Positions 1,938-61,711 of a DNA stretch of 64,000 bases are shown here, piece by piece. How positions within the stretch are numbered: position 1 is the first letter of the stretch; every line of letters begins with the position of its first letter. This stretch comes from Candidatus Babeliales bacterium. GTDB lineage: Bacteria > Babelota > Babeliae > Babelales > JANWKD01. A program made the position numbers and the translations under genes. The notes under the pieces are model-generated. The model was given only the letters and a program-made list of their open reading frames with translations, did no database searches and was not told the DNA's origin. The DNA lies in contig CAVRJM010000001.1 of the NCBI GenBank assembly GCA_963722075.1, positions 160,001 through 224,000 on the forward strand, written 5' to 3'.

Positions 1938-2264
1938 ATGAATATCTTACTATTTATAATTCTTTTCTTGTTTTCCTTCAATAACTGGGCTATGGATTTT
2001 GGGTCCAGTAGGCCAATTTTTCCCCTTGTTCGTAATGATTTTATGGTTGACTATGTAATAAAAGGTCAAAATAATATTTTTCATATAAAAGCTAAAGTAG
2101 GTCCGGGTTCTTACTGGACTCAAATACCATTGGATTCTTCTCATTGTACCCCAATGCAATTCATTGAAAATGAACTGATGCAAAAGGATGTTAAAGAACT
2201 TATTGATGAAAATAAGATTGCGCCAGGTTCAACTGCAAGGATACTTATTACAAGATTGTTTTGA
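1938..2264 (+). CDS. Signal-peptide protein; probable N-terminal part of the downstream toxin (frameshift)
   Basis: Hydrophobic signal ending NWA-MD; overlaps next ORF by 77 nt. Confidence 0.5.
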   Translation: MNILLFIILFLFSFNNWAMDFGSSRPIFPLVRNDFMVDYVIKGQNNIFHIKAKVGPGSYWTQIPLDSSHCTPMQFIENELMQKDVKELIDENKIAPGSTARILITRLF

Positions 2265-4449
2265 TTATGCTCTGAATAACTCTATCGAATATGTAAATGC
2301 GGCACTTATTGATAAAGAGCGAGCACCATATCATTTATTATTAGCTACCTCTTTATATAAAGCGCTTACTGATACCAATGCTTCTGATGCAATTTTGTAT
2401 TGTGATTCATTGCTCTGTTCGTATGCACCGTTGCAAGGCTGTTATAATACGGTTTTGGAGCACAGCGCATCATTAATTAACATTCTGGATCAAAAACTAA
2501 CACCTGGTCAAAAAACTATTCTTGAAGATGCGCTTAAATCAGTAAGTCATTTATGGTATAAGGCGCAGTGGAAACACGATGCAGATGCATGGAGAAAAAT
2601 ACAATCATTAAGAACATTTCGTGATTACAATGAAGAGACATTTGTATTAGCTCAGCCAAATGGGGATGATAGTGATATAATGCCGCTTTCAGATCCATTG
2701 TTTGAAGATGCTCATGTTGATTTATTATGTACAGCTTGTTACCAAAATCCCATTTTTACTACAGTGCTTGAAAATAATCCAGCTAATTTTGCCTTAGAAT
2801 GTAAAGCTAAATTAATGGGGAATTTTAATGAAACATTTAATTTTAATGCAGTTGAAGCCATTTTTAGAGATGTTAATGCCCCACCTATGGTTATTTCATT
2901 ATTGCGTGATGCCTTACATTTTTGGGCAGGTGCGGTAAGTGGTGTGGAAAAGGAGGTTGGAAGCCTGGCAATTAATTTTGGTGAGATTGCTTATGATTAT
3001 TCAACACAAAATGATATGAAACATTGTTTGAGCTTTGCCTATATCGGGCGCCAATTATTAAAATACGGTCAGATTGTACAGAATGTTATTATTAATAAAT
3101 TTGATGAATATAAGCATTTAGCGGCTACAGGAGGGGAGTTCATTCAATATAGAATTGAATCATTTGCGCATTTTGTACCAGCATTAGCAGAAGCAGTAGA
3201 TAGTTTAGCAAATGCACTCAATGGTAAAGGCTTTTATTCGCCTTATTATGCATTTGAAGAGCAACAGCTTATTGAAGAGGTGATACGGGATCCTTATGCT
3301 TATAAAGAAAAACTTGATGCAGCTATTAATGATAATATGCTCATACAAGCAGGTGAAACCGCTCTTACCATGCTGCATTTTATTGCGCATCTACAGGATC
3401 CTGCGGTTAAAGCGCATATTGCTTTAAAAGCGCCAGCAGTAGCAGTGAAAGTAGTGAAATATATTAATGACTATCTTGCGCTTCCTGATGAAAAGCATTT
3501 TGAAGATACATTTGATTTTCTATTAGATGGTCTGATTATAAACAAAATTTTCCGCTTGGGTGGATATTTGTTTAAATTAGTTAGCCGTCATCATCAAGAA
3601 TTAGAATTTTTAAGTAGAAGAGCTAAAAATATAAAGCAAGGCAAATTATTGGAGCGAGCGGAAGCTTGTTTAGAAAAAGCAGGCCAAAAATTAATTAATA
3701 GCGCCAATAACAAATTAGTTCCAGATATTATGTCCTCTAATGGTGTATTATTTCGTAAAGGTACACCTAAACCAAATTTTAATAATGTAGTACCGGGATT
3801 ACAGAAATTCTTAACAGAGATTGGAGAATTAGAAGCTAAATACGGGCAACAGGCAGTACAACGAGTATTAGATGCGCTGGGCTATAATAATCAATATGCT
3901 TTAAATAAAACCTTACATTGGAGAAATCAATATCCTTTTAAGCAAACATTAATGGAGATTATCGAAGAACATGCAAAAAATATAATTGATTTTGAAAGCA
4001 ATGCAGGATGGAGTTTGTTGCCATTTGATCCTACTGAAGGTAATAAATGCATTTTAAAAACTATCGAAGAAGCTGTTGCGGGAGTCGCATGTGAAAAACA
4101 AGGGTTATTGACAGGATTAGTGAGAGATAACGTTGTGGGAAGAGGAGATTTTATTGATGGTTTTGGAAAAATTTGGGATGTAAAAACAGCAAAAACAGAT
4201 GGAATCTCCAAGTTTAATACTTTTAATGTTAATGATTTCATTCAAAGCATTGTTAAGGAGCTAACAAAACCTACCAATGAAAATGTAATTATTCATATTT
4301 CATACTTAACTGAAAAAAAAGAATTTGAGTTACTTTGTAAAAAACTAAGAGAATTATCTAATGATCAATTAAAAAGATGTATTATGGTACATAAATATGA
4401 TACCAAAAAAACCACTGATAATTTAATTAAATTTTTAGGTAAAAAATAA
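2188..4449 (+). CDS. Polymorphic-toxin-like protein with C-terminal PD-(D/E)XK-type nuclease domain
   Basis: C-terminal EEAVAG...RDNVVGRGDFIDGFGKIWDVKT (E...D...DxK); small ORF coupled directly downstream. Confidence 0.6.
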   Translation: MLKNLLMKIRLRQVQLQGYLLQDCFDYALNNSIEYVNAALIDKERAPYHLLLATSLYKALTDTNASDAILYCDSLLCSYAPLQGCYNTVLEHSASLINILDQKLTPGQKTILEDALKSVSHLWYKAQWKHDADAWRKIQSLRTFRDYNEETFVLAQPNGDDSDIMPLSDPLFEDAHVDLLCTACYQNPIFTTVLENNPANFALECKAKLMGNFNETFNFNAVEAIFRDVNAPPMVISLLRDALHFWAGAVSGVEKEVGSLAINFGEIAYDYSTQNDMKHCLSFAYIGRQLLKYGQIVQNVIINKFDEYKHLAATGGEFIQYRIESFAHFVPALAEAVDSLANALNGKGFYSPYYAFEEQQLIEEVIRDPYAYKEKLDAAINDNMLIQAGETALTMLHFIAHLQDPAVKAHIALKAPAVAVKVVKYINDYLALPDEKHFEDTFDFLLDGLIINKIFRLGGYLFKLVSRHHQELEFLSRRAKNIKQGKLLERAEACLEKAGQKLINSANNKLVPDIMSSNGVLFRKGTPKPNFNNVVPGLQKFLTEIGELEAKYGQQAVQRVLDALGYNNQYALNKTLHWRNQYPFKQTLMEIIEEHAKNIIDFESNAGWSLLPFDPTEGNKCILKTIEEAVAGVACEKQGLLTGLVRDNVVGRGDFIDGFGKIWDVKTAKTDGISKFNTFNVNDFIQSIVKELTKPTNENVIIHISYLTEKKEFELLCKKLRELSNDQLKRCIMVHKYDTKKTTDNLIKFLGKK

Positions 4450-4793
4450 TGAACGTGAGCATTGATTGGAATGACAAAACTATTATATATACTAAGGGTT
4501 CAATTTTAGACAAATTATGTTATTCAATGATCTCTATAATTGGAGAACAAGATATAGATATTAATGATGCTATTGATGAATTATTACGGGTTTGGTATGA
4601 CATTCCAGCTGGGGGAATTGATATTGCTGACTATATTCATAACAAAGTTGACTTTGATTCCTTTTTAATAATATTACGCAAAGGATTGGATAGGCTTTAT
4701 AAAGAAAATCAATATATCTTTCTCCATTATAAAAATGATTTAGAAAATTTTTATCAAGAATTACTAAAAATTCAAGAATCATGGCCTACTTAA
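4449..4793 (+). CDS. Putative cognate immunity protein
   Basis: 114 aa acidic ORF coupled to the toxin by a TAATG overlap. Confidence 0.55.
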   Translation: MNVSIDWNDKTIIYTKGSILDKLCYSMISIIGEQDIDINDAIDELLRVWYDIPAGGIDIADYIHNKVDFDSFLIILRKGLDRLYKENQYIFLHYKNDLENFYQELLKIQESWPT

Positions 4794-4829
4794 ATTTAAT
4801 TGCATTGTAAAAAATCGTTTTGAAGATCT

Positions 4830-5375: not shown

Positions 5376-5381
5376 ACCGTC

Positions 5382-5807: not shown

Positions 5808-6031
5808 AATTATTTAAAGTTAAAAAAATATAGCAAAAAATAGGAGTAGTAGCAAGAATGGCATGCTTTTTGCAATAGCATAAAAATCTTATGGATAACT
5901 TTTTTGTTGCCAATTTTGAACAAACACAGCTCTTTTCGATTACGTTTCATTGGTCTTTTTATTCATTATTAGCAATTAAACGGTAAATCTAGTATCATAA
6001 TTATAAACAAATTATAAAATAATAGATCACC

Positions 6032-6105: not shown

Positions 6106-6121
6106 AAGAAAGTAGTTTATA

Positions 6122-8169: not shown

Positions 8170-8586
8170 TTACTTATTTTCAAATATTTTTGAGATAAGC
8201 TTATCAATATGTACATCATAATCTGTTCTCATCTCATTAATTTTATCTTTCATACGAAGTATATCTTCAAGCATTACATTAGGAAGGGAACCACCTTCCT
8301 TTGCGCTTACGATCATAAAAAGTAATCGTTCATGGGCTGGTAAATATGCATAATAACCCACTCCTCCTTTAATTGCATCAAAGGTTCTAATCTCGGAAAT
8401 AAAATTTTCAGCTAAAGTTTTTAAATTAACAGGGCCTGTTTCACGTAATATTTTTATGATTTTTCTTTCAAATTCAGCCGCTTCTATTGCCTCTCTTTCC
8501 CGAGAACTTAATTGTCTTTCCATGGCCATAAGGGTAAATGGGGCAAAGGCTATGGTAAAAAGGGCTATTTTTAACAGATTTTTCAT
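8170..8586 (-). CDS. Hypothetical secreted protein
   Basis: GGAGG before MKNLLKIALFTIAFAPFTLMA-ME. Confidence 0.7.
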   Translation of the reverse strand: MKNLLKIALFTIAFAPFTLMAMERQLSSREREAIEAAEFERKIIKILRETGPVNLKTLAENFISEIRTFDAIKGGVGYYAYLPAHERLLFMIVSAKEGGSLPNVMLEDILRMKDKINEMRTDYDVHIDKLISKIFENK

Positions 8587-8783: not shown

Positions 8784-8787
8784 AAAA

Positions 8788-10341: not shown

Positions 10342-11646
10342 ATGGTAACGCAAGAATTAGAGAAAATGAGTCTTGCCGATTTAAATCAATATGCACGAAA
10401 ATTGGGTGTAGTAGGCGCTACCTTAATGTCAAAAGTGGTTTTAATTCAAAAAATTAAAGAACTACAAGAAAATCCTGATAAGGAATTGGAAGTAGAAGGG
10501 GTATTAGAAAAATTACCTGATGGATTTGGGTTTTTACGATCTGCTAAATTTGATTATGTATCCGGCCCTGATGATATTTATGTTTCGCCATCTCAAATAC
10601 GTCGTTTTGGTTTAAGAACGGGGGATACGGTATCAGGCGTTATCCGTAAACCTAAAGACGGGGAAAAATATTTTGCCTTATTAAAGATTGATAAAGTAAA
10701 TTTTATGGATCCATCAACGCTTGGTGATCGATTATTCTTTGATCGCTTAACACCGTTGCATCCCGATAAAAAATTTAATTTAGAATCTAATCCCACCTAT
10801 ATTTCTACTCGTTTAATGGATATTTTCTCGCCTATAGGTAAAGGACAGCGCGGATTAATTGTTGCGCCGCCAAAAGCAGGTAAAACGGTTCTCTTAAAAG
10901 AAATCGCTCAAACTATTTTAGCCAATCATCCAGAAGTATATCTCATTGTTCTTTTAGTTGATGAACGCCCTGAGGAAGTTTCTGATATGCGCCGTTCTAT
11001 AAAAGGCATGAACGCTGAAGTAATTAGTTCTACCTTTGATGAGGCAGCAGAACGTCACGTGCAAGTTGCAGAAATTGTGTTAGAGAAAGCAAAACGCTTT
11101 GTTGAAGTAGGCAAAGATGTGGTTATCGTGCTTGATGCTATTACCCGTTTAGCGCGTGCTTATAATACTATTGCACCAGCATCTGGTAAAATTTTAACCG
11201 GTGGTATTGATGCTAATGCTTTGCAGCGGCCAAAACGGTTTTTTGGTGCAGCACGTAATACTGAAGAGGGCGGATCTCTTACCATTATTGCAACCGCATT
11301 AATTGAGACTGGTTCTCGTATGGACGAAGTTATTTACGAGGAATTCAAGGGAACTGGTAATATGGAAATGCACCTGAGTCGAAAATTAGCAAACCGTCGC
11401 TTATTTCCTGCCTTTGATCTACTCATTTCTGGTACCCGTAAGGAAGATTTACTACTTTCTCCCGATGAACTTAATAAATCATGGATTCTACGTAAGTTCT
11501 TGGCTACAATGCCTACGGTAGAAGGCATGGAATTCTTAATTGATAAAATGAAAAAGCATAAAACGAACGCTGAATTTTTTGAATCAATTCATAAGAAGAA
11601 TGGAAGCAGCTCCAATGGTTCTTCAAATCCTGGCTCTGCAGCATAA
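10342..11646 (+). CDS. rho: Transcription termination factor Rho
   Basis: [48 protein letters not shown]. Confidence 0.98.
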
Positions 11647-12717
11647 ATTAATTTTTTTGGTAGCAGTAATAGGATTCTTGGCTACTGCAATGGAACCACC
11701 GCATAAGAAAATAAAAGAAACTAAATCCTTGCCAGCTTTATCAGAGCGATTGCCTACTGAAGCATCGTTACGCATTAGAGCGATTTATTGCTTAGCACAA
11801 AAATATCATGAAGAGAGTCCATATGGTGAAGGTAGTGAAGATAATACATTATCAGCTATAGCAACAAAGGTGCCCGATAATTGCTGGTGTTTACTGGAAG
11901 CGCTTTATAAAAAGAAACTACAGCCAACGCGTGCCTTAAGATTCATATGTAAGCATATTATGCCGATGAAGACATGGTGTACGATTTAATCAGTATTGGT
12001 GCAAGCCCCAATTGCTTTGTGCGGTGTGATGGGTATCGCATACCCATTTTAGTAAGTATGATTAAAATTGGCAGGTCATCAGTTGTCGAAGCATTGCTAC
12101 AATGTGGTGCTCATCCCAATAAAGTATATTACCATGATGATGCTTGTTCATATGAAAATAGAATATATAAATCAATTTCAGTATTAATGCATGCTGCGCT
12201 TTTTAAAAAGAAGAAAGAAATAGGCATACTTTTGTGTTATGGCGCAGACATAGCGCAAAGGCAGGGCGCCGGTTATACCACATTGGAATATGCTGCACCT
12301 GATAAAGAAGCGATGGAATTATTATTAGAGGCAGGTGCACCTAAAAATGATGCCGTGCTCGATTTTACTATTGAAAAAAAATACACCCAGATAACCAATT
12401 GGCTATTAATAAGCCATGATTTCAAACCAGATTTAGAAACATTGTGTCGAGCGTTAGAAAAAAATGAATCTGCTACGGTTGGGGTACTGTTAGATTTGAA
12501 AATTCCTGAAATTACTATCCATAGCAAATGGGGCACATATCCTATCGTTGCTAAGGCGATAGATAATGATTGTGTTGCAAGTCTAGAACAATTTCTTAAT
12601 CGTGGATTACCCATTAATTATCAAGTTGATCAACGAGGTACTACGTTACTACAATATGCACGACGAGAAAATGCAGTCAGAATCATGCAGTATCTTACAG
12701 AGCATGGGGCTCATTAA
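11615..12717 (+). pseudogene. Secreted ankyrin-repeat protein split by a frameshift near 11955 (ORFs 11615-11989 and 11974-12717)
   Basis: Signal ...IGFLATA-ME; joining frames gives ALRFICKH-YADEDMVYDLISIGASPN, an ankyrin-like repeat; further LLxxGA repeats downstream. Confidence 0.6.
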
Positions 12718-21772: not shown

Positions 21773-22858
21773 ATGAATAAACGTATGTTTGCCAGCTCCA
21801 TATTAGTAATGGGTGCGCTTGTTTTATTGCCTAATTGTGAATTATCTAAATCTGGCGAATCAGCGGCGCCAGCTGCTGCCCATGAAAAATCGGTGCCAGG
21901 GGCTCCTGCACCAGCAGTTTCTAAACCAGCGCCTTCAGGCCCACAAGGGGAAATTCTGTTGACCTTATATGATCAAAAAGTTCCAAAAGTTACCGTAACG
22001 GATTTTCAAAATTATAAAAAAGAGCTTTTAGAAGCACAACCTAACTATGCTTCCATTATTGAATTTATGCCGGGTGCTAATGAGCAGATTTTTGAAAGCC
22101 TCGTGAATGAAGCGATCCTTGAAGAATGGGCGGATAAGAACCATATCGCGCAAACCAAGGAATATAAAGAAGATCTTGATAAAATTATGAAATATGCGCA
22201 TCGCAGCTTGAACGTTAAATACTTCCAAGAAAAACATCCAGTAACCGTTACTGATGCAGAAATCAAAAAATATTATGACGAAAACAAAAATAATATTCCA
22301 CAATTAATTGTTTCTCCTGGTGGCGTAACTGCTAAAGCGGTTATGTTTGATACCAAAGCAGCAGCACAGGCTTTCTATGATAAGGTGAAAGATCCTAAAT
22401 CTAATTTTGATGCAATGGCTAAAGAAACAAACGCAGCGGTAAAAGATCTTGGCGAAGTAAATAACCAAAGCTTTGAAGTGGATAGCGCTGTTCGCAAAAC
22501 CTTAATGGATGCAAAAAGATTCCCAGCGGTTGATCTTGTTGAAATCAGTGATAAATCATTTGCCGTAGTTAAAGCATTAAGCAAAAAAGATGCGCAATAT
22601 GTTCCATTTGACCAAGTTAAGCCAGGCATTGAAAACTTGTTAAAACAACAAAAAGCTGCTGAAGTATTAACTAAAGAACTTGATAAACTCAAAAAGGAAT
22701 ACAAGGCAAACGTTAACAAAGAATATTTCGAACGTGAACGTAAAGTACAAGAAGAGCATGCTCAAAAGGCAGCCGCTTCTATGAAAAAAGAACTTGGTGA
22801 ACCTACCAAAGGTGAAGAAGAAAAAAAACCAGCACCCAAGCCAATGAAAGCTGCTTAA
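21773..22858 (+). CDS. PrsA/parvulin-like foldase lipoprotein
   Basis: Lipobox-like LPNC, VTDAEIKKYYDENK, FDAMAKE...DLG, PFDQVK. Confidence 0.75.
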   Translation: MNKRMFASSILVMGALVLLPNCELSKSGESAAPAAAHEKSVPGAPAPAVSKPAPSGPQGEILLTLYDQKVPKVTVTDFQNYKKELLEAQPNYASIIEFMPGANEQIFESLVNEAILEEWADKNHIAQTKEYKEDLDKIMKYAHRSLNVKYFQEKHPVTVTDAEIKKYYDENKNNIPQLIVSPGGVTAKAVMFDTKAAAQAFYDKVKDPKSNFDAMAKETNAAVKDLGEVNNQSFEVDSAVRKTLMDAKRFPAVDLVEISDKSFAVVKALSKKDAQYVPFDQVKPGIENLLKQQKAAEVLTKELDKLKKEYKANVNKEYFERERKVQEEHAQKAAASMKKELGEPTKGEEEKKPAPKPMKAA

Positions 22859-41552: not shown

Positions 41553-43335
41553 CGGTACCCTGCAGAAATCTAATAAGATCTTCAGAGGCATGAGGGGTAA
41601 TATAATCTGATGCAGTTCTTCCTTGGTGATCTTTCATCGTTTTATCAGCGCCATTATTAACGAGTAATATTACTGCATTAGTATTATTACGACCTACTAC
41701 TATCATAAGCGGGGTAATGCCTTGATTATCTGGTGAATTAATAAGTTTTGTAAGTTGGTGAGGGTAGGTCGTGTGTAGTAGCAATTTTAAGCAATCAAAA
41801 TTGTGTTTCGCGGCAAAATGGATAGCATTGCGTCCCTTATTATCAGTTAAAAATATATCGGCTTTAAAGTCGTGAATTAATGTTGATGCCACTGGAAATA
41901 GATTATGCTTAATGGCCTGATGTAAGGGTGTACGCCCTTTATTGTTTTTCTTATCAAGAAATGAACGATGTTGATCAACAAGCTTTTCTAGTAATTGAGG
42001 GCAATAAATTGCAAAGTGTATAATTGCATCACCTCTATTAGTGACATGAGTGGTATCGGAATTGGGTAATAATTTTAAAGATAACTCGCTATCATTATCA
42101 CGAAGTGCGTTCATGAGCGCGGTTTCACCAGTATCATCACATTGGTTGATGATATTTGGATAGCGGCATAATGTATCAATTGTGGTAGGATCTTTATGGC
42201 AGGTTGCGTACCATAAAACGGACCTTTTTTGAGAATCAAGGATGGCTGGATTAGCGCGTTTAGCAAGTAATCTATTAAAAGTTTCTGGAGAGATACCAGA
42301 TTTAACGCATAATTGTAATAAGGTACATTTTCGATTCTCACAAAAAAAATATATATCATACGCATCATTTATATGGGCCCACCAACTATCATCAACTAAA
42401 TGTATGTTGTTAGTTATAACAGCTAATAATAAAAATAACTTATTTTTTTGAGCAATGGTCAATTTCGGTGTGTCTGTTAGTAACTTATCATATGCTCCGT
42501 CTTCAACTTGTTCAACCAGTTCTTCATATGCTCCAATTCTAACGTGCCCCTGCGGAGCATGATAGTTTGTTGGTAATTCGGTGACTCTATCTTTAAATTG
42601 GATTTCCGCCTGCGCAACCATATAGTCCGTTGCTAATTCTGGAGCATGATTAAGTATTAGTTCTAATAAATGAGTATTACGATTAGTAGCATTTACTTTT
42701 TGCCATAAATATTTCTTGGTAATAATGTTAATTAATAAGCTTGCAAGTTTTTTACAATCATATATAAGCGCATTATGTAACGGGGTCATACCGTTCTTAT
42801 CTGGTGTTACTATATCTAAATATCCTGCATTGCGCGGTAATTTCTTGCGATCACAAAGTAGTAATAGTTCCGTTGCTACCTTAGGATCTCCATTACAAAT
42901 AAGCGCATTAAGGGGCGTTTGCCCAGCTGTATTAGTAGCTTCTAAATTACAGCGATAATTTTTTAATCTATTATGTAATGATGCTATGGTTCTTGATCGG
43001 TGAATAAAAAAATCCGGCTTACATTCGCCTGATTCTAAAAATGTAGCAAAGTCAACATGAGCTTTTAAGAGGCTCTCATAATCTTCATTTTGAAGTAATG
43101 GTTCAATTTCTTTATGGGTTAACTTTTTATTTTCCAGTGCATGTAATATGCCATCTATGGCTAAGGTAATTAAGGAAGGTAGCTGGTAGGTATCGTGTAA
43201 GGGTTCTACCGGTTCTAATATAGTAGGGTCAATATCCATTATAGTAGGATTAACATTCATTGTAGTATGTTCCATATCCATGGCGGCTATAATGCTCGTG
43301 CAAAAAAGTGAGAATAAAAGAATATTTTTTTTCAT
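41542..43335 (-). CDS. Secreted ankyrin-repeat protein
   Basis: GQTPL, GMTPLH, GETALM, GRTPLH, GITPLM repeats; signal ending IAA-MD. Confidence 0.92.
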   Translation of the reverse strand: MKKNILLFSLFCTSIIAAMDMEHTTMNVNPTIMDIDPTILEPVEPLHDTYQLPSLITLAIDGILHALENKKLTHKEIEPLLQNEDYESLLKAHVDFATFLESGECKPDFFIHRSRTIASLHNRLKNYRCNLEATNTAGQTPLNALICNGDPKVATELLLLCDRKKLPRNAGYLDIVTPDKNGMTPLHNALIYDCKKLASLLINIITKKYLWQKVNATNRNTHLLELILNHAPELATDYMVAQAEIQFKDRVTELPTNYHAPQGHVRIGAYEELVEQVEDGAYDKLLTDTPKLTIAQKNKLFLLLAVITNNIHLVDDSWWAHINDAYDIYFFCENRKCTLLQLCVKSGISPETFNRLLAKRANPAILDSQKRSVLWYATCHKDPTTIDTLCRYPNIINQCDDTGETALMNALRDNDSELSLKLLPNSDTTHVTNRGDAIIHFAIYCPQLLEKLVDQHRSFLDKKNNKGRTPLHQAIKHNLFPVASTLIHDFKADIFLTDNKGRNAIHFAAKHNFDCLKLLLHTTYPHQLTKLINSPDNQGITPLMIVVGRNNTNAVILLVNNGADKTMKDHQGRTASDYITPHASEDLIRFLQGTDES

Positions 43336-46240: not shown

Positions 46241-46981
46241 ATGAAATATTTATTTATTAAAAAAATAATAAGCACCGTTATGATATCCATTTTTAGTGGG
46301 CTTTTATATAGTATGGATAGGCCAGATGATCTAGAGGGTGGATCTATTCAAGTAGATTTGGCCAATATTTCTTTATTTAGTCATATTTATAATGCAGATG
46401 AGGTCAGTGTACTTGATCGTGAAAGTTTAAAGGAAGATCTAGAGCAAAAAAAGCTGAAAACCGTTTCCATTCTTCTTGAAATGTGTTACAGATGTCGCGT
46501 TGATCTTTGTGACGGTGATTTATTCCAGAACAGCTTTTTTTTCCCACAATGGGCATGGGAAGAAGAATATCCGGAAGGCTTAATAAAAATACATGCCATT
46601 TGGCAGTTGCTACGAAGTGATTATGAAATACAACGCGATATCGGAAAAATTACATTTTTAAATCTTATCGAAAGTCTTAATTCTACTTCACAAGAAATAA
46701 TATTGAAACAATTAAATTCTTACAAAATGTCCAAAGAAAGACTTTTTATTAATGTGTGTCTAACGCTAATGCCTTTTTCTGTAATAGGATTAATTGGCTA
46801 TTACGAAAATGAAAACGATTTGTGGAAAAACAAATCTTTTAAATTAGTGATAGGGCTTGGGGGTGTTGCTGCTCTTTTATATGGCTCGATAAAAGTTGGC
46901 TGCTCAACTCAAGATTATAGGTGGTGGCAATCAGCCAAGCGGTTTCAGAAGGCAGTAGCTATCTGTGAACAATCTTCTTAG
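46241..46981 (+). CDS. Hypothetical secreted protein with two C-terminal TM helices; paralog of 48922-49611
   Basis: Signal ending LYS-MD; shared W..Y.P.G and WW...A..IC motifs. Confidence 0.7.
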   Translation: MKYLFIKKIISTVMISIFSGLLYSMDRPDDLEGGSIQVDLANISLFSHIYNADEVSVLDRESLKEDLEQKKLKTVSILLEMCYRCRVDLCDGDLFQNSFFFPQWAWEEEYPEGLIKIHAIWQLLRSDYEIQRDIGKITFLNLIESLNSTSQEIILKQLNSYKMSKERLFINVCLTLMPFSVIGLIGYYENENDLWKNKSFKLVIGLGGVAALLYGSIKVGCSTQDYRWWQSAKRFQKAVAICEQSS

Positions 46982-47101: not shown

Positions 47102-48364
47102 ATGCATTATAAAAAGCTTTTTTTATTATTCTTGTTGATTGGTATACCGTTAACAAGTAATGCTAGGCTTAAGACAGCATTGTTAAATTCGATCTTAACG
47201 AATAAATTTCATCGGCGGCTTGAGGATGTTGGCTTTGGGGGGACATGGGCTTTATTAGCAATGGGTGGTTTTCATGCAGCTGAAACAATGTGGTGGGATA
47301 AGAAACCACTTAGTAAACACAATCTTATACTACCGATTGCAGGAATTGTTACTATGATAGGAACGATGGGTTTATCTACTTATTTACAAATTAAATCAAG
47401 AAGTTGGAATCCCTTTCAAGAAGAGCTTAATGCCGCAACTAATAATTATGAGAATAAGAAAAAGGATCTTATCAAAAAACTATATGAAGTAGAGCTAAAT
47501 AAAGAAAAAGAAATAGTTGAGCGGTTGAATGAGTTAGAAACTGATTTAGATAAAAAAATAATAGAAGCACTAGATAATAACCATAATTATAAATCATTTT
47601 TCCTTTCCAGGAGCATGGGAACAGACCGATACCAAAACATACAAGAATTATTATTTAGTCGTAATCCACGGCCAAATATTCTTATTCATCTTTGTAGGTA
47701 TGGATTTAAACTCACCACTCACGAATTTCAAACAATACTGAATGAATGGCCCTTAACTGATGCTAACTATCTATTTAAAAAAATGAGTAAGTTAAAAAAA
47801 AATGGTCTTTACACACAAAATAAATGCAAAATTGTCGGATTGTCTGACTATTCTGATTGGTTGGAGCTCTGGGCAGATTATGCAAATAATTCAAATAACC
47901 TATATCGTAATATAAAACTTTTTGAACGGTTAAATAAGTATGGTACTTGTATGGATTTAACAGAAGTAGTTATTTATTGTGTTAGAAAAAACTATTTTAA
48001 TGTTATTGATTGTTTAAAAAAACAATTTGGTATTGATTTGAATAAAGGAAATAAATATGGGGAAACGCCACTTGAAACTGCTACTTTAGCTAATAATATA
48101 GTGATGGTTAAATACCTAATAGAGCAAGGTGCATCTGTGGTGAATGCGAAAACTAAAGGGTTATTATGGTTTGCTAAGAGATTTCCCGACCGCTTAATTT
48201 ATGATTATCTAAAAAGCAAATTGAGAGACCAACTAGTTGATAATTTTAAAATTATATTGGGCAATGGTTATACCAATAGATATGAATACAGAACTGGCTC
48301 TATTCCTACAGAATTGCCTGATGAACTTATACAACATATTGCCGACTATGCAGTAAAAAAATAA
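47102..48364 (+). CDS. Membrane protein with ankyrin repeats and C-terminal F-box-like motif
   Basis: Two TMs, coiled coil, GETPLETA...VKYLIEQGA, terminal LPDELIQHIADY. Confidence 0.75.
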   Translation: MHYKKLFLLFLLIGIPLTSNARLKTALLNSILTNKFHRRLEDVGFGGTWALLAMGGFHAAETMWWDKKPLSKHNLILPIAGIVTMIGTMGLSTYLQIKSRSWNPFQEELNAATNNYENKKKDLIKKLYEVELNKEKEIVERLNELETDLDKKIIEALDNNHNYKSFFLSRSMGTDRYQNIQELLFSRNPRPNILIHLCRYGFKLTTHEFQTILNEWPLTDANYLFKKMSKLKKNGLYTQNKCKIVGLSDYSDWLELWADYANNSNNLYRNIKLFERLNKYGTCMDLTEVVIYCVRKNYFNVIDCLKKQFGIDLNKGNKYGETPLETATLANNIVMVKYLIEQGASVVNAKTKGLLWFAKRFPDRLIYDYLKSKLRDQLVDNFKIILGNGYTNRYEYRTGSIPTELPDELIQHIADYAVKK

Positions 48365-48395: not shown

Positions 48396-48902
48396 ATGGA
48401 ATTATATAAAAAATTGATATTGCTTATGGGTATTATAGTGGTAATGCCTTGTGTATTTGCAATGGAGCATGAAGATGACCCAGAATTAGCGGAAGCAATG
48501 AAGCGGTCATTACTTGGGCAAAATCAATACCTGCCAAGTGCGCCCCCAATGCATGGAGTTCAAAATAGTGAAATAGCAGATCGAAATTTAGCAATAGAAC
48601 TTACCTACTCATGGAATAATTCTGAAGGCAATGGAAAAGAAAGAACGGGTAATGATGATTCTCAAAATTATGCAGGTTCTTCACGTTCACGTGGTACAAA
48701 TAGACCGGTTGATTCCACTAATTTTAATTTTGCTGCCCGTCATGCTGCACTTACCGAGTTTAAAAACAAACCATGTAATAATTGTTTTTATAGGCAAAAT
48801 CTACCTTGGTACAAAAAATATTTTCTTCCACTTATTAGTAGTGCAGCACTTTTTGGTGCGGGTAGTTTATTTACCTACGCATTGATGAAGTGGACTCGAT
48901 AA
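48396..48902 (+). CDS. Secreted tail-anchored protein with UIM-like and PSAP motifs
   Basis: EDDPELAEAMKRSL, LPSAPP, C-terminal TM. Confidence 0.7.
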   Translation: MELYKKLILLMGIIVVMPCVFAMEHEDDPELAEAMKRSLLGQNQYLPSAPPMHGVQNSEIADRNLAIELTYSWNNSEGNGKERTGNDDSQNYAGSSRSRGTNRPVDSTNFNFAARHAALTEFKNKPCNNCFYRQNLPWYKKYFLPLISSAALFGAGSLFTYALMKWTR

Positions 48903-48921: not shown

Positions 48922-49611
48922 ATGGTTTTTATGAAGAAGTATATTTCTTATCTACTTTTTGCTTTTTCTATTTTAAGTTTATTTATGAGTACTGCTTCAT
49001 TACTGCATGCTATGGATAGTGATTCAGAATGGTGGCAAGAAAATGAAAAGCAACAAGCAATTATCACGCTGGTAAGTACCATAGCAAAAATGGGATATAT
49101 TTATCAAAAATTAGATATTCAAAATATCGAATTTCCCGTTTACATACCGGAGGTTACCGGAAGATATGATTTATGGTGTAATAATTATGATTCTCCTAAT
49201 CCTTTTGAGAATTCTCATTGGGATAAATACTGTCCTGGTGGGTATGATCAATGTTCTGCTGCAGTAGATCAATTAAAGAAACGTTTACCAGAAAATACAT
49301 TACTTTCTCTTATTGCAAAACTAACGCCATTAAATAAAAAAATACTCTTGAAGGATTTGCAACAATATAATCCAAACCCTTCTTTATATTGGCGTATTGC
49401 AGGTACAAGTGCATCGGCAGTGTTGTCGGTAGGTAGTGCGGCTCTTACGTATACATTTCCTGATTTAAAATATGCTGGTATTGCTGGCATGGTGCTGGGT
49501 GGAATTGGTACTTTAGTAGGAGCATGTTTTGTAAAAACTAGTTTTAGTGAGCGGCAATGGTGGCGGCGATGTCCTAATTGCCATGAAGCAATTAGACTTT
49601 GCAAAGAATAG
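48922..49611 (+). CDS. Hypothetical secreted protein with two C-terminal TM helices
   Basis: Signal ending LHA-MD; paralog of 46241-46981. Confidence 0.7.
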   Translation: MVFMKKYISYLLFAFSILSLFMSTASLLHAMDSDSEWWQENEKQQAIITLVSTIAKMGYIYQKLDIQNIEFPVYIPEVTGRYDLWCNNYDSPNPFENSHWDKYCPGGYDQCSAAVDQLKKRLPENTLLSLIAKLTPLNKKILLKDLQQYNPNPSLYWRIAGTSASAVLSVGSAALTYTFPDLKYAGIAGMVLGGIGTLVGACFVKTSFSERQWWRRCPNCHEAIRLCKE

Positions 49612-53574: not shown

Positions 53575-54045
53575 ATGAAAATAAAGTTGTTTACACTGTT
53601 TTTAATGGTTAGCCTTGGAATGGGTACAGTATCTCTTCGGGCAATGGATAGCAAAAAGGTAATTGATTGGGATCGTAGGTATGATGCATTCGAGCAAGGA
53701 GCAGCTACAGCAGAAACTGGGAGGCCAGATCGGAGATGGCAAAGGGTAAGAAATCAGCAGGAAGATGATCTCATTGGTAATCGAACTTCAACAGGATCAC
53801 AGTATCCAAATACATCCTATTATAATCCTAGCAATCATTCATCTGGTAAATCTACTTTTTTCTTAATAAAAGATTACCTAAAATGGGGTTTGAGTGGTGG
53901 ATTATTGGCAACAGCAGTTGGTTTTGTTGGTTATGAAGTATATAAACATGGTTGGGATTATCAATCATACCGAAAACTAAAGATAGTTGGTGGTCTTTAC
54001 TGTGGCGCATTATCTCTTCTTGCTTATAAATTTTTTAATGACTAA
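53575..54045 (+). CDS. Hypothetical secreted protein with two C-terminal TM helices
   Basis: GAGGA before the start, signal ending LRA-MD. Confidence 0.7.
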   Translation: MKIKLFTLFLMVSLGMGTVSLRAMDSKKVIDWDRRYDAFEQGAATAETGRPDRRWQRVRNQQEDDLIGNRTSTGSQYPNTSYYNPSNHSSGKSTFFLIKDYLKWGLSGGLLATAVGFVGYEVYKHGWDYQSYRKLKIVGGLYCGALSLLAYKFFND

Positions 54046-54057
54046 ATTCGGACGTCT

Positions 54058-54654
54058 ATGAAGAACATATTTTTTCTTACGGTAGCTTTAACACTATTTT
54101 CTACCCATCAAATGAAGGCAATGAAGGCATATTCAACGGATGCCGGGCAACCAATGCCTACAGATGTAGCATTTGATCATCGTAATCATATTGCCTCAAC
54201 TGAAGATCATTATTATTTATTTCAGATGGATGCCCAGGATGCATAGGCAATTGGCTGTGTGGTAAATGATATGATGAGAGATCGAAATGAGCTTTGTCAT
54301 CAACGATCTTTTAGAGACTTACATCGAAATGATGCAAGCAGCGCAGAAGCGTCATCTTCTACAGCTACTGCTTCGTCATCTCAGAATCCAAATCAGCAGA
54401 TTAGAACGTACGTTCGTCCCAATCCCATCTGGAATCCAGATTCAAAAGATAAAGCTATGAATAATGCTGAACGCACTATTGTAAGATAGTTTGGTTATGG
54501 AATTTCCTCGGGGCTATTTATAGGTGGCATTTCGTGTATGTGTTTTGGCATGTATAATCAGAGCGGGTATAAAGTATATGGTGCTGGCTTAGGCTTATTA
54601 AGCGGAGCAGGATTTGGTTGCCTTATCACTTGGTTAAAAACAAGAGCGCGATAA
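54058..54654 (+). pseudogene. Secreted two-TM protein gene with two in-frame TAG codons (54244, 54487)
   Basis: One frame throughout; after the second TAG it reads FGYGISSGLFIGGISCMCFG...YGAGLGLLSGAGFGCLITWLKTRAR-TAA. Confidence 0.7.
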
Positions 54655-56251: not shown

Positions 56252-56259
56252 CAATCTTA

Positions 56260-57102
56260 TTATTCAGATTCTTCTTCTAGTTCTTCATTACACAGCAAAG
56301 AACTTATAGAACTTATGCCAACTTGTAATGCTTGATTTGAATCTTGAACTGGTGGGTGGTATTTGGTGATATGATTTTGTAACTCACTAGGACGTCGAAA
56401 GCTTTTCAAACAGATAGAGCATCGGTGCGGTTTGCCATCATGGGAATTCTTAATATGAGCGCTCAGTTCTTTTTTAGCGTTAAAAGCCTGATGGCATGTC
56501 CCATCTGGGCAAGTAAGTTGTAATGTTGATTTATGCTGATCAGATATATGACTTTTAAGGGTATTCTCCGTAGAGAATATTTTGAAGCATTGTGCGCAAG
56601 TGTAGTTTGATTTATTATGAATCTCTTGATGCATTTTTAACTTATAAGGACGTGGAAATCTTTTCAAGCAGATAGAGCATTGGTGTGCTTTGCCATCGTG
56701 AGCGCTCTTAATATGTTCGCTACGTTCTTTTTTAGTGGCAAAAGTCTTACGGCATTTTATATCTGGACAAGTAAACTCTACTCGATCTCGTTTTCTTTTA
56801 TGAGAATTGGTATTAGCATTACCATCATTATTAATAGCAGCGTTTTGATTATCCAAAGGATTGTTATCAATGCTTGTAGTAGAATCTTCATTTTCTTCTT
56901 CTTCAACTAATGGTTCTTTATCTATTAAACCATCATTTATTAAAGCATCATAATCTTCGGTTTCAAACGGAATTAAAAGGGTGTCGTCTTCTTCCATAAA
57001 TTCAGCCCAAGAAGAAATAGGTGAATTTTGATCATGCTCCATTGGCTGTGCTAGAAAAGGAAATAAGGCGATAATAAGTATAAAAAAGATAGGTAATCTC
57101 AT
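56260..57102 (-). CDS. Secreted protein with five C2H2 zinc fingers
   Basis: Signal peptide, acidic region, HKRKR, five Cx2-4Cx12Hx3-4H fingers with HDGKPH-type linkers. Confidence 0.9.
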   Translation of the reverse strand: MRLPIFFILIIALFPFLAQPMEHDQNSPISSWAEFMEEDDTLLIPFETEDYDALINDGLIDKEPLVEEEENEDSTTSIDNNPLDNQNAAINNDGNANTNSHKRKRDRVEFTCPDIKCRKTFATKKERSEHIKSAHDGKAHQCSICLKRFPRPYKLKMHQEIHNKSNYTCAQCFKIFSTENTLKSHISDQHKSTLQLTCPDGTCHQAFNAKKELSAHIKNSHDGKPHRCSICLKSFRRPSELQNHITKYHPPVQDSNQALQVGISSISSLLCNEELEEESE

Positions 57103-57580: not shown

Positions 57581-59542
57581 ATGAAGAAGCTCTTATTTTC
57601 TTGGCTTATGGCCAGTTGTTGTATGGTGATAATGCAGGTATATACAGGAGCACAGCCAACACGTTCAAAAACAGTTCCAAAAAGCAATACTATAGAAGAT
57701 ACGGGTGAGCCATTTACTCAAAGAATACAAGAGGTCAAAAAAAAGTTAGAAGCACAAAGCGCCGAACCCCAACCATTTTCAAAAGAAAGTTATGCAAAAT
57801 TAAAAGATGATTTAACAACAACGTTTAAGTCAATCGCTAAAAACGTACTTATGAGACAGTTGTATGAACGCACGTGGAATCGGTTAAAAGATCTTGCTAA
57901 CCGTATGCCTACCACTGGTGGCACCAATGTGAGGGTTGATACTGCCTTATCAGCTAATGAAAGATTATTTTTAAGTAAGCGAATGGAAACGGTACGAAAT
58001 GCATTGGAGCAATTTTTAGATACTGATTTATCAGATAGAAGAAAAATAACTGATAATGATTTAAAAATAGCATTTGTGGCAAGTGGCGGGGGCTATCGTG
58101 CTATGATTCTTACGATTGGTTACTTATCTGCGCTGCAGCAAATGGGCTTATATGATGCACTTACGTATGTTTCAACCTTATCAGGATCAAGCTGGGCGTT
58201 AGCACCGATGATTTCGCTTAATTATACACCGCAACATTATAAAGAAAAATTATTAAACTCGATTCAAAATTTAAATCTATTGGCAATTCAAAACGTTCTT
58301 TTTAAATCATTGACCAACATAAATAATCTGGTAGATACCATTATTGTGCCCAAATATTTATATAATCAGCCAATACGCTCCATTGATTTTTATGGATTTA
58401 TGTTAGCGCAAACATTATTAGGAAATGATGGGTATAAATATTATTTATCCGATCAATGGAAGATTCTTAATGATTCTAATAATGCAGGAAAAATACCTTT
58501 TCCTCTTTATTCAGCAATCTCAGTGAGTAAGAAAAAGGACAATACGTATGCTCTGGATTGGTATGAATTTGGTCCGAGCGAAGTGCGCGTGGGTTTCCCG
58601 ACGGAAGATAAAAAAGTTGCTTCATTCAATATACCTACGTATGAATTTGGTAGTGAATTTAATGCAGGAAAGCCTGTTAGAAGTGTCCCTGAAGTAATAA
58701 CGCCATACTATCTAGGGCCTGAACAAATGTTAGGGTACTATTTAGGAATTTTTGGATCTGTCTATTCAATCAATTTTAATAAGATTAATCAATTTGTTTC
58801 TGGTGGAATGGCACAATTATCAAGCGGCGGATTTTCACTCGATTCTGCAAAGAATTATATTGCGATTAGCGCCTTTAACGCGCTTCAAAATTTTAGTAAA
58901 AAAACTACGGAGAACATTTTACCAGCACAAGTATTTAACTTCTTAAAAGGATATGAAGAAGCTCCCGATTATTTACAAACAGCAGACTACCTCACCATGG
59001 GTGATGCGAGCATTGATTATAACATTCCAGCGCGCCCCGTATTATGGCCGTTACGTAATGTAAAAGTATTAATTATTGGCGATTCTTCTTCCAACATAGA
59101 ATCAGCAACCGAATTAAAGCGTTTTTTTGAAGATGCATATAAATTGTATGGCTATCAATATACACGTATTGATACGGGCGATAATAAAACCATTCGTTTT
59201 TATAAAGATTTAAAAAATAGCAAAGCACCACGAGTTGTTTATGTTAATTTTGTAAAAGATATAGATTTAATAGAGCAAGCTAAAATAAAAAATAAAGAAC
59301 TGCGAGATTTAATTGAAGTTACGCGCTTAGAACAATTTGATCCAGTCGCCTGCATTCAAACTAAACCCAATAATTTTTGTGACGCCTTTAATTTTAACTA
59401 TTCCAAAACAGATTATGAACAACTCATTGGTATTTCAGAATTCAACATGAAAGTTAATATAGAGAATATTAAACGCTTTTTAATTGATGAAATGGTAAAA
59501 AATCTGGAAGACGTTAATTTCCCCGTTTTTGGCCAACCGTAA
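57581..59542 (+). CDS. cPLA2/lysophospholipase (PLA2_B-type catalytic domain), secreted
   Basis: ASGGGYRAM oxyanion motif, YVSTLSGSSW nucleophile, PFPLY, WYEFGPSE, late DASIDYNIP...RNVKVLIIGD. Confidence 0.85.
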   Translation: MKKLLFSWLMASCCMVIMQVYTGAQPTRSKTVPKSNTIEDTGEPFTQRIQEVKKKLEAQSAEPQPFSKESYAKLKDDLTTTFKSIAKNVLMRQLYERTWNRLKDLANRMPTTGGTNVRVDTALSANERLFLSKRMETVRNALEQFLDTDLSDRRKITDNDLKIAFVASGGGYRAMILTIGYLSALQQMGLYDALTYVSTLSGSSWALAPMISLNYTPQHYKEKLLNSIQNLNLLAIQNVLFKSLTNINNLVDTIIVPKYLYNQPIRSIDFYGFMLAQTLLGNDGYKYYLSDQWKILNDSNNAGKIPFPLYSAISVSKKKDNTYALDWYEFGPSEVRVGFPTEDKKVASFNIPTYEFGSEFNAGKPVRSVPEVITPYYLGPEQMLGYYLGIFGSVYSINFNKINQFVSGGMAQLSSGGFSLDSAKNYIAISAFNALQNFSKKTTENILPAQVFNFLKGYEEAPDYLQTADYLTMGDASIDYNIPARPVLWPLRNVKVLIIGDSSSNIESATELKRFFEDAYKLYGYQYTRIDTGDNKTIRFYKDLKNSKAPRVVYVNFVKDIDLIEQAKIKNKELRDLIEVTRLEQFDPVACIQTKPNNFCDAFNFNYSKTDYEQLIGISEFNMKVNIENIKRFLIDEMVKNLEDVNFPVFGQP

Positions 59543-59543
59543 A

Positions 59544-60188: not shown

Positions 60189-60289
60189 TAATAACCTATT
60201 TCTTACAATTTTAACCGGAGAATTTAGGTTAACTAACGTAAATTATATTTTATTCAGTTCTTTCAATATCAGGCCAAATGGGTAACTTT

Positions 60290-61711
60290 TTAGTTGTTTT
60301 TACTATTGAGCGTCAATAATAATCCAATTAAATCAGTTTCCAAATCTTGATATTGGGTGTTATTGTTGGGGTTATGGTCAGGCTGAGGTCCTTCTTCTTC
60401 TTCTTCTTCGCGGTTTACAACTGATGAAATGGCGGGCGGCATATTTGATAGATTGTGCGCATATGAGTCCACAATTTGAGCAGCATTATTACTCGTTGTT
60501 GATGATACCGTAGCTACATCAGGAACTATTGCAAATGGTGTTTGTTCTTCTTGCTGTATCATCTGATCAGGCCTGTTAGTAGATGCTGCATTACGATCAT
60601 TATAGTTGCTGATATGCTTTTGGAGATCCTCGAATTTTTTAGGGCATTTTGGTACATGTTTATCAAAAATTCTTTTGCTCACATATACAATTGAGCATAT
60701 CGGACATGTATATTTAACTTTGTTGTGAGTCTTTATATGCCGGGTTAAGTCACAGTTGCGTTTAAAAGACTTTCCGCAATCTTCATACTGACATATAAGA
60801 GATTTATCTTGCAATTGAGTAACATTTTCTGTTTGGTTATTTTCTTCTTCTTCTTCTGGTTCTTCCGAATCATAAGATTGGTTACTATTGTTATCTTTCT
60901 TATGATATCTCGATTTATGTTTATATAACGCCGCACGAGTAGGACATTTTGTTGAGCAAATTTCACAAAAAAATCCAGGTTTAGTATGTGTTTCTATATG
61001 TGCATCTAATTGATTAGTACGTTTAAAGGACATATTGCAACCTTTATAGTGACATTTATATCGTTTTTCTTGAACTTGAGTAGCATTTTGTACCGATTGT
61101 GTTGATCGTTTTCTTTTTCGGGAACTGCCGGCTGTTGTATTTATATCATTGTTAGAAGATTCTGGTAATTTACTCTGTTCTTGGGTTGATAAATTTGTAA
61201 GAATGTTAGCATCTTGTTGGTGATGAAGTATGGTATGGATTTCTAAAATATGGGGAAACCGTGATGTTGTCCTGCACCCTTTTAGTGAACATTTAAGACG
61301 TTCTGGTGATGCCATATCTTTATGGTGATTCCTACAATGAGTAGAATAAGTAATAGAATTTTCAAATTTATCGCTGCAATATACACATATAATTGGTAAT
61401 TTTATATGGAATTGCAAATGGCGTCTTAGAAGATTTTCATCATCATCAGAGTATTTTTCCCCGCAACTAGGAATGGCACAGGTAGCGGTATTTTCAGAAC
61501 GATTTATATGATTTTCTTTCATATGCGCTAATAGATCACGATATTTCATTGGAGCTTCGGTGCAACCAGGGCATTGAAATGAATTAACAAATGATTGTGC
61601 TACTTCTGGTTGAGAAACAGCGGTTTGGGTAGGTGGATTAGGATCCTCCATTGCCCTAAAGGTAGTGGGTACTAAACTGATAATAAGTAAAAAAAAGCTC
61701 CATTTATTCAT
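60290..61711 (-). CDS. Secreted protein with eight C2H2/C2HC zinc fingers
   Basis: Signal ending FRA-ME, SSRKRKRS, CQYEDCGKSFKRNCDLTRHIKTH. Confidence 0.9.
   Translation of the reverse strand: MNKWSFFLLIISLVPTTFRAMEDPNPPTQTAVSQPEVAQSFVNSFQCPGCTEAPMKYRDLLAHMKENHINRSENTATCAIPSCGEKYSDDDENLLRRHLQFHIKLPIICVYCSDKFENSITYSTHCRNHHKDMASPERLKCSLKGCRTTSRFPHILEIHTILHHQQDANILTNLSTQEQSKLPESSNNDINTTAGSSRKRKRSTQSVQNATQVQEKRYKCHYKGCNMSFKRTNQLDAHIETHTKPGFFCEICSTKCPTRAALYKHKSRYHKKDNNSNQSYDSEEPEEEEENNQTENVTQLQDKSLICQYEDCGKSFKRNCDLTRHIKTHNKVKYTCPICSIVYVSKRIFDKHVPKCPKKFEDLQKHISNYNDRNAASTNRPDQMIQQEEQTPFAIVPDVATVSSTTSNNAAQIVDSYAHNLSNMPPAISSVVNREEEEEEGPQPDHNPNNNTQYQDLETDLIGLLLTLNSKNN

Follow-up and report, generated by a model that had tools for sequence, protein, structure and literature searches.

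Leader-bearing proteins in the window

The window, a 64,000-nucleotide stretch from the genome of a Candidatus Babeliales bacterium that parasitises protists, encodes thirteen proteins in which a Sec-type leader runs directly into a Met residue that would become the first residue (+1) of the mature protein. All thirteen sites named in a preliminary description of this DNA are present, each of its coordinates being the first ATG of an ORF with a Sec-type leader. In the list below, the slash marks the predicted cut, and the rank is that given to the Met site by a fixed cleavage rule (first in 8/13 proteins, second in the other 5/13).

1938..1997, + strand: leader with WA/MD on a 108-aa orphan; Met codon at 1992; ranked first
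8518..8586, - strand: leader with MA/ME on a 138-aa orphan; ranked first
11615..11695, + strand: leader with TA/ME on a 124-aa orphan overlapping the end of rho; ranked first
25383..25439, - strand: leader with YS/MK on a Sel1-repeat protein (24066-25439); ranked second
25590..25646, + strand: leader with NG/ML on a 322-aa orphan, +2 non-acidic; ranked first
43276..43335, - strand: leader with AA/MD on an ankyrin protein (41542-43335); ranked second
46241..46318, + strand: leader with YS/MD on a 246-aa orphan; ranked first
48396..48467, + strand: leader with FA/ME on a 168-aa orphan; ranked first
48922..49017, + strand: leader with HA/MD on a 229-aa orphan; ranked first
53575..53649, + strand: leader with RA/MD on a 156-aa orphan; ranked second
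54058..54126, + strand: leader with KA/MK on a 62-aa orphan; ranked second
57037..57102, - strand: leader with QP/ME on a C2H2 zinc-finger protein; ranked second; Pro at -1, a cut two residues earlier being possible
61646..61711, - strand: leader with RA/ME on a C2H2 zinc-finger protein (60290-61711); ranked first
61800..64000, - strand: paralog of the 60290-61711 C2H2 gene, starting at 64151, just outside the window; its leader and RA/ME junction are near-identical to those of 60290-61711
21776..22858, + strand: PrsA-like PPIase without Met at +1, lipobox-like Cys; negative
start at 23191: SurA-like protein without Met at +1; negative
30797..32065, + strand: exported protein with a putative barrel fold, KA/WV, no Met at +1; negative (its homolog in genome G126 reads FS/MV)
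47102..48364, + strand: leader-bearing ankyrin protein without Met at +1; counter-example
57581..59542, + strand: leader-bearing cPLA2-like (PLA2_B) protein without Met at +1; counter-example

The motif was originally labelled Met-acidic, which is slightly too narrow: Asp or Glu occupies +2 in 10/13 sites, with Lys in two and Leu in one. As the preliminary description stated, the PrsA-like (21776), SurA-like (23191) and barrel-like (30797) proteins lack Met at +1, the first of these being a poor control because of its lipobox-like Cys. In all, ten leader-bearing window proteins checked lack Met at +1, including the effector-like 47102 and 57581 and the MutS-domain protein 15045.

Methionine at the predicted cleavage site across the genome

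The pattern is confirmed across the genome: at the predicted cut, about one third of signal-peptide proteins, chiefly ones with eukaryote-like domains, have Met and then a large polar residue. Cleavage sites throughout are our own heuristic predictions, made by the fixed rule or by a logistic model, both blind to +1 and +2 and both chosen only after an EM-trained Met-blind model had been discarded; the latter drifted into the h-region, placing Met at +1 in only 33/498 proteins with peaks at offsets 3-4. A loose regular expression for a small residue followed by Met likewise gave false positives in the h-region, which were corrected by eye.

Under the fixed rule, Met occupies the predicted +1 in 132/436 signal-peptide proteins and -1 in none, with counts of 4-24 at the remaining offsets, in support of the proposed mature Met terminus. 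The logistic model, in family-grouped cross-validation, chooses the Met site in 130/151. A small residue followed by Met and [DEQKN] is found in the c-region of 161/471 strict signal-peptide proteins (6-11 in four shifted windows), and in the relaxed set the Met class comprises 192/517 (20-28 in shifted windows). The first Met of the c-window is preceded by A/S/G at -1 in 164/242 cases without any selection on that position. The leaders of the Met class, mostly 17-22 aa, have the features of Sec/SPase I signal peptides (basic n-region, hydrophobic h-region, small -1, small or aliphatic -3, the -3 residues being L/I/A/S/V/T/C), and their -1/-3 residues are similar to those of the non-Met class.

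The genome-wide code can be written Met-[Glu>Gln>Asn>Asp>Lys]. Glu, Gln, Asn or Asp occupies +2 in 106/132 Met+1 proteins versus 67/304 others, Lys occurs in 10/132, and small residues (7/132 versus 105/304) and hydrophobic residues (7/132 versus 116/304) are depleted. Disorder-promoting residues at +3..+12 amount to 0.55 in the Met class versus 0.44. NLS-like clusters are weakly enriched in Met+1 proteins (9/132 versus 5/304), and an F-box-like regular expression is uninformative (2/192 in the Met class versus 0/325 others).

The motif Met is an in-frame ATG close to the 5' end of its gene, and the preliminary description raised the concern that it is the true start codon; a true or second start would yield a cytoplasmic isoform. 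This reading has a negligible probability, and we reject it: a Shine-Dalgarno-like sequence precedes the first ATG in 156/204 genes, the motif ATG in only 6/204, and other internal ATGs in 145/1909, and the segment upstream of the motif ATG reads as an intact leader throughout.

The Met could also be a historical relic, either the old start of captured genes that were given a leader or part of a mobile leader cassette. Leaders are indeed common to tandem paralogs, leader pairs with 8/16 identities are in slight excess (38 versus 21 in shuffles), and one pair from neighbouring genes reaches 12/16. However, the Met class spans 138 separate cargo families with leader similarity otherwise near the column-shuffle level, which excludes a single mobile cassette. 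The +2 residues are unlike the ordinary second residues of the genome (Asn 13%, Lys 13%, Ile 12%, Glu 5%), the Met sits in exact +1 register, and it is retained while the leader diverges, being kept in homologs of 22-40% identity with otherwise dissimilar leaders. The relic reading is thus largely refuted by these comparisons, and we consider it highly improbable.

Protein classes and spread across Babelota

Genome-wide, by eye, Met+1 is found on 42/56 proteins with ankyrin, WD40, J, C2H2 or Sel1 domains, on 0-2/41 conventional exported proteins and on 0/10 barrel-like proteins (eukaryote-like versus conventional, Fisher p 7e-13, the paralogs among them not being independent). The logistic model, whose training set of Met-class proteins includes many of the 56 eukaryote-like ones, calls Met+1 in 37/56, 0/41 and 0/10, respectively. 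Met at +1 is therefore not equally frequent in housekeeping exported proteins (at most 2/41 versus 42/56), the alternative that the preliminary description had set against its proposal. The Met-class proteins are probably host-targeted effectors. Most of them are orphans, for which effector status is assumed. As the genome-wide effector predictor once proposed, the motif offers high precision, but 14/56 eukaryote-like proteins escape it, and in several Babelota families it cannot be applied.

Of the Babelota families sampled, about half show enrichment of the motif, whose distribution is patchy. Other families have lineage-specific junctions (Ala/Ser-Gln/Glu in family f6; Pro-Ala/Ala or Pro/Met in f11), the few ankyrins seen in f8 and f12 have Trp, Asp, Asn or Gln at +1, and Met-Ala/Gly/Pro termini occur in genome G041. 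In the cultured Babela massiliensis, 10/10 ankyrin proteins among the supplement rows listed have a small residue then Met at the leader end, and the motif is therefore experimentally testable. The genome papers report leaders on 79/126 ankyrin proteins of this species (PMC4378268) and on 78% of those of Chromulinavorax destructans (PMC6561590), with type II as the sole secretion system in both. The word methionine is absent from the main texts of both papers, and the motif was not found described in a literature search whose coverage left out bioRxiv supplements and journals behind subscription.

In Chlamydiota and Amoebophilaceae the motif is at background: 41 Chlamydiota genomes gave 93 matches (a raw count without shifted control, those listed being mostly not leader-like), and 12 genomes of the Amoebophilaceae family gave 0-5 each. 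Five further outgroup genomes gave 17 matches versus 15 in the shifted control. A J-domain homolog search aimed at Holosporales returned 3 matches.

Possible roles of the Met terminus and comparison with known systems

Eukaryotic hosts read N-terminal Asp, Glu, Gln, Asn, Lys, Arg, His or bulky hydrophobic residues as degrons. The explanation we tentatively prefer, plausible though far from assured, is that selection favoured a terminus of Met plus a large polar residue because it withstands methionine aminopeptidase and host N-degron pathways in the protist cytosol or nucleus. After Sec export, signal peptidase I would cut directly before the Met, and cargo bound for these compartments would arrive bearing the new N-terminus. 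Met at +1 and, at +2, a large residue that is not hydrophobic may then have become fixed by selection; this pair would block Met removal and avoid a Met-hydrophobic degron, while periplasmic, outer-membrane and vacuole-lumen proteins would escape this filter, leaving their +1 free. One study indicates that termini made by signal peptidase are read by N-degron pathways once cytosolic (BiP), and the methionine aminopeptidase rule for +2 is taken from the same source (PMC8037982).

The observed termini have the expected form, with a stabilising +1 and the depletion of small and hydrophobic +2 residues given above. By the logistic model, the predicted +1 is destabilising under the N-end rule in 25/41 conventional and 8/10 barrel-like proteins and in 12/56 eukaryote-like ones. 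Where Met is rare, stabilising +1 residues are found in 20/22 ankyrins versus 47/79 others (G040) and in 4/4 versus 6/17 (G009); in G041, where model predictions look error-prone, they are not enriched (29/48 versus 8/15). Against the N-degron explanation stand the 14 eukaryote-like proteins lacking Met+1 and the f8 and f12 ankyrins with their Trp, Asp, Asn or Gln. Moreover, other stabilising residues (Ala, Ser, Gly, Thr and Val) would be cheaper to reach, and the preference for Met is thus not explained by stability alone.

The NatB substrate set is Met-Asp/Glu/Asn/Gln, and the terminus was earlier suggested to mimic a eukaryotic N-terminus of its Met-Asp/Glu type; built for host NatB, it might confer protection or acetyl-dependent binding. 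The 106/132 +2 residues fall exactly within this set, and the Ser/Ala-Gln/Glu junctions of f6 resemble NatA substrates, but a +2 that is merely resistant to methionine aminopeptidase and non-hydrophobic fits equally well, and Lys at +2 and the Met-Ala/Gly/Pro termini of G041 are misfits. NatB works mainly co-translationally, whereas Met-class proteins would arrive folded. Since the ribosome is where NatB normally acts, a stable terminus that needs no acetylation is the simpler assumption, and acetylation mimicry seems improbable.

Alternatively, abundant proteins might pass through Sec or be cleaved faster when P1' is Met and P2' is acidic, a dedicated peptidase perhaps being involved. Acidic early mature regions do favour Sec export, and G000 has two signal peptidase I genes, but conventional exported proteins share the machinery yet lack the motif, and -1/-3 do not distinguish the classes. 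The two peptidases are close paralogs, and 22/40 other Babelota genomes, including the motif-rich G001, G002 and G003, have a single match, so a dedicated signal peptidase is rejected; gains in processing efficiency are a very improbable cause.

It is possible, but on balance doubtful, that mature Met-[E/Q/N/D] and a short polar stretch form an export code read by a sorting factor, as is processed PEXEL in Plasmodium, which would send a periplasmic subset out by way of one of the two secretins, or else across the vacuole membrane. Such a code would account for the preference for Met over other stabilising residues and for the disorder-promoting +3..+12 region, and the junctions of f6 and f11 would fit a co-evolving receptor. 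The type II gene set of this genome, with gene names read by eye, is ordinary, comprising two secretins and a pseudopilin cluster. However, the receptor is hypothetical, the motif is patchy in a phylum that has the secretion genes throughout, and substrate recognition by type II systems usually depends on folded surfaces. Typical type II substrates in this genome (glycosidases, phospholipase, peptidases, phosphoesterases) lack the motif, which is thus no general secretion signal. Two gspD copies are reported for all TM6 genomes studied (PMC4776705), in line with a second secretin for such a route.

In Dependentiae, up to ~40% of genes encode leader-bearing proteins, secretion systems are limited to type II, and host-directed proteins have so far not been distinguishable. 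With high precision, the two-residue code distinguishes ~190 mostly orphan proteins from envelope proteins and hydrolases, and it points to host N-terminal quality control, or to a sorting step not yet known, as a force that shaped the secretome across a large part of the phylum.

In bacteria, the lipoprotein +2 sorting rule (Lol avoidance) is a case in which residues that directly follow a signal-peptidase site carry a code; it differs in involving signal peptidase II, a lipidated Cys and the choice between inner and outer membrane. Listeriolysin O is said to be degraded in the host cytosol via the N-end rule, and papers on it and on ActA reportedly describe SPase-made termini of Sec-exported bacterial proteins read by host N-degron machinery. 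The likeness to the present proteins lies in such termini on Sec-exported proteins; those are single proteins, whereas here a shared, predicted stabilising terminus is found on ~190 proteins of 138 families. The ankyrin effectors of Babela massiliensis and Chromulinavorax destructans belong to the same protein class as many Met+1 proteins. In the bipartite plastid signal of ochrophytes and diatoms, as described in 10.64898/2026.03.27.714854, a +1 Phe right after the signal peptide carries targeting information, so that one conserved residue likewise adjoins the signal-peptidase site. That system differs in being eukaryotic ER-to-plastid import, in using Phe and in having a transit peptide after it.

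A further parallel is PEXEL, with the consensus RxL/x-E/Q/D. Arg is essentially absent at -3 of Met-class leaders, so the RxL element is not found; E, Q or D does occupy +2 in 90/132 Met+1 proteins. Cleavage of PEXEL in the secretory pathway exposes E/Q/D at +2, is tied to host-targeted proteins, depends on P1', and leaves a mature terminus that decides export, as described in 10.1101/2023.07.12.548774, an analogy that may favour an export code here. PEXEL operates in a eukaryotic parasite with plasmepsin V and RxL, unlike the bacterial Sec leader with Met fixed at +1 found here, for which an export role is putative. A Babelota counterpart, in which a receptor, possibly a secretin, reads Met-Glu/Gln/Asn/Asp and ~190 proteins per genome reach the host cytosol with a terminus passing as a native eukaryotic start, is rather unlikely; if true, it would mean that type II effectors carry a signal in their sequence, and that a bacterium without an injectisome can thereby deploy an effector arsenal.

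Register of the Met junction

The window spans G000:C1:160001-224000. Genome G000 (1.47 Mb, 35% GC) can be placed in Dependentiae/Babelota, since the PrsA-like protein of the window has a homolog named from Ca. Babeliales. Dependentiae/Babelota are protist parasites. All 13 window positions at which the preliminary description put a "Met-acidic" signature are ORF starts, each with a hydrophobic leader and the described junction, in which methionine comes first after the heuristically predicted signal-peptidase cut (Met+1). The acidic part is less uniform, with Asp/Glu at +2 in 10, Lys in two and Leu in one. Met+1 is missing in 10/10 other leader-bearing window proteins checked, including the PrsA-like protein (a probable lipoprotein) and barrel-like proteins, as had been claimed. 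Those ten also include the SurA-like protein and three effector-like proteins (one ankyrin, one cPLA2-like and one MutS-domain). Window features are as follows.

13030-15045, minus strand: MutS_III + MutS_V domain protein (Pfam), Sec-like leader, without Met+1
57581-59542, plus strand: cPLA2-like lysophospholipase, PLA2_B (Pfam), a eukaryote-type enzyme with a leader, without Met+1
59544-60188, minus strand: C2H2 zinc-finger ORF without a leader; other members of its tandem family have leaders
60290-64000, minus strand, and G000:C1:224216-225283: three tandem genes of one zinc-finger family, almost identical in the leader and at the predicted mature N-terminus

An exported MutS-like protein is unusual; the lysophospholipase perhaps acts from the vacuole side, and the leaderless C2H2 ORF is possibly a split remnant. 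Pro at -1, unusual for signal peptidase I, recurs at predicted cuts, marked here by a bar (QP|ME, e.g. at 57102, IP|ME and YP|LE, and Pro|Met in the Babelota genome G041).

Genome-wide, 1407 ORFs were called by hexamer score and leaders by a hydropathy rule. A small residue, Met and one of D, E, Q, K or N occur in the c-region of 161/471 strict leaders (6-11 in shifted windows), and the Met-class makes up 192/517 of the relaxed set (20-28 in shifted windows), fractions diluted by the miscalling of some cytoplasmic enzymes and membrane anchors as leader-bearing. Of the 517 proteins examined, 436 passed a fixed cleavage rule blind to +1 and +2; Met then fell at +1 in 132 and never at -1, with 4-24 cases at other offsets. 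When a logistic model was fitted to Met-class sites with +1/+2 features excluded, it picked the Met site in 130/151 under family-grouped cross-validation, and the first c-window Met is preceded by Ala/Ser/Gly in 164/242. Taken together, these results make cleavage directly before Met well predicted.

Shine-Dalgarno-like words lie upstream of 156/204 first ATGs, 6/204 motif ATGs and 145/1909 other internal ATGs, which rules out the motif ATG as the true start codon, the objection raised at the outset. A single mobile leader cassette is ruled out by the spread of Met-class proteins over 138 cargo families and by leader similarity across unrelated cargo at about the column-shuffle level. Comparison with 400 kb of another Babelota genome, G126, gave 43 reciprocal pairs (Met judged by eye). 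Met+1 is kept in 6/7 pairs that have it in G000, at 22-37% identity and with unalignable leaders; two non-Met G000 proteins have a Met-bearing partner. Five of six members of an AAA family retain Met-Asp, and the relatives that align share 25-39% identity with the query.

Protein classes and the +2 residue

The Pfam scan covered 323 sequences (leader candidates from ~860 kb of G000, plus window extras), and ankyrin, J, C2H2 and WD40 domains were searched across the whole genome. Most Met-class proteins lack a Pfam match. By eye, Met+1 is present in 25/38 ankyrin, 8/8 WD40, 5/6 J-domain, 3/3 C2H2 and 1/1 Sel1 leader-bearing proteins, counts that leave out two positives recognised later. It is not equally common in housekeeping exported proteins: enzymes and envelope proteins of conventional type whose leaders look cleavable, a set omitting those judged cytoplasmic, lipoprotein or membrane-anchored, give 0/41 (logistic model) to 2/41 (by eye), and barrel-like proteins chosen by eye 0/10. 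Two Met-bearing AAA ATPases were put in neither class. The Fisher test of eukaryote-like against conventional proteins gives p = 7e-13, a significance overstated by paralogy. Features outside the window are as follows.

G000:C1:973394-982682: a tandem run of four WD40 proteins, each with a leader and Met+1
G000:C1 ~434865 and 422612: DOT1-family methyltransferase and Macro-domain proteins; both carry leaders but lack Met+1
G000:C1 ~41730, 62224, 108785, 358508, 363178, 1010962, 1041382, and window 30797: exported barrel-like proteins of 420-600 aa

Many exported proteins of 420-600 aa lack a Pfam match and several end in a barrel-type C-terminal Phe; they may form an expanded, unnamed outer-membrane-barrel-like set.

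Among 132 Met+1 proteins, +2 is Glu in 61, Gln in 16, Asn in 16, Asp in 13 and Lys in 10. Small +2 residues occur in 7/132, versus 105/304 non-Met proteins, and hydrophobic ones in 7/132 versus 116/304. The methionine aminopeptidase specificity rule is given in PMC8037982. From +3 to +12, Met+1 proteins are more polar than other exported proteins, a difference that fades deeper in. Met-hydrophobic termini are degrons, and NatB specificity covers Met-Asp/Glu/Asn/Gln termini. With so few small or hydrophobic residues at +2, the predicted terminus would resist methionine aminopeptidase, avoid the Met-hydrophobic degron and match NatB; the NatB mimicry proposed earlier thus fits the +2 preference, which fits aminopeptidase resistance and degron avoidance too. 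Three GNAT acetyltransferases with leader-like N-termini are clustered at L106:13510-18912 (G000:C1 ~577500-582900), and exported acetyltransferases could be relevant to N-terminal modification.

Range across Babelota and secretion machinery

Searching 121 Babelota genomes with a Met-Lys-Lys...small-Met-Glu/Gln DNA pattern yielded 857 matches, versus 340 with the pattern shifted 60 bases; at least 10 matches were found in 26 genomes, versus 1 in the shifted control, and 17/20 matches in G000 are in frame. The pattern/shifted ratio is 2.9-10 in families f1, f2, f3, f8, f9 and f16, ~2 in f6, f10, f13 and f14, and at most 1.1 in f4, f5, f7, f11, f12, f15 and f17, several of these families holding just 1-3 genomes. 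Counts were at background in Amoebophilaceae, Waddliaceae and the other outgroups searched; ankyrin proteins are mostly lipoprotein-like in Amoebophilaceae and leaderless in Waddliaceae. Among the ankyrin rows at places 4-13 of 127 in the Babela supplement, all 10 have a small residue before Met. Ankyrin junctions are mostly Ala/Ser-Gln/Glu in the Babelota genomes G040 and G009, and Pro-Ala|Ala or Pro|Met in G041, which also holds the following array.

L248-L249 (G041:C1:1388001-1428000): ~40 short ankyrin genes with leaders and a junction signature of their own

The few f8 and f12 ankyrins often have a destabilising first residue.

Published accounts (PMC4378268, PMC4776705, PMC6561590) describe numerous ankyrin proteins with leaders, type II as the sole secretion system and two gspD copies. 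The G000 gene set includes two secretins, one pseudopilin cluster and two signal peptidase I genes that are close paralogs. Since 22/40 relatives, motif-rich ones included, have a single signal peptidase match, a dedicated peptidase for Met junctions is unneeded.

Readings of the Met+1/+2 code

We tentatively favour host N-degron avoidance, in which Met-class proteins would enter the host cytosol with a mature Met terminus that escapes host N-degron pathways. This would account for the class bias, for the avoidance of both small and hydrophobic residues at +2, for the unconstrained +1 of envelope proteins and for the Ala/Ser junctions of f6. The logistic model gives a destabilising +1 in 33/51 conventional and barrel-like proteins, and in f6 (G040) +1 is stabilising in 20/22 ankyrins versus 47/79 others. 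Left unexplained are the use of Met over Ala, the 14 of 56 eukaryote-like proteins without Met+1, and G041, in whose ankyrins the logistic model finds no enrichment of stabilising +1. The Met specificity and the lineage-private junctions would be accounted for by a PEXEL-like export code read from the mature Met terminus, which we consider less likely; it leaves unexplained why typical type II hydrolases lack Met+1, a gap that would close if the code acted at a second step. Such an export code and N-degron avoidance are not mutually exclusive.

The literature searched, including passages of the Babela, TM6 and Chromulinavorax papers and the Babela supplements, yielded no mention of a Met+1/+2 code. 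Codes in the residues that follow a cleavage site have precedents in PEXEL, the ochrophyte +1 Phe and the lipoprotein +2; what is new here is a +1/+2 code at proteome scale on bacterial Sec substrates.
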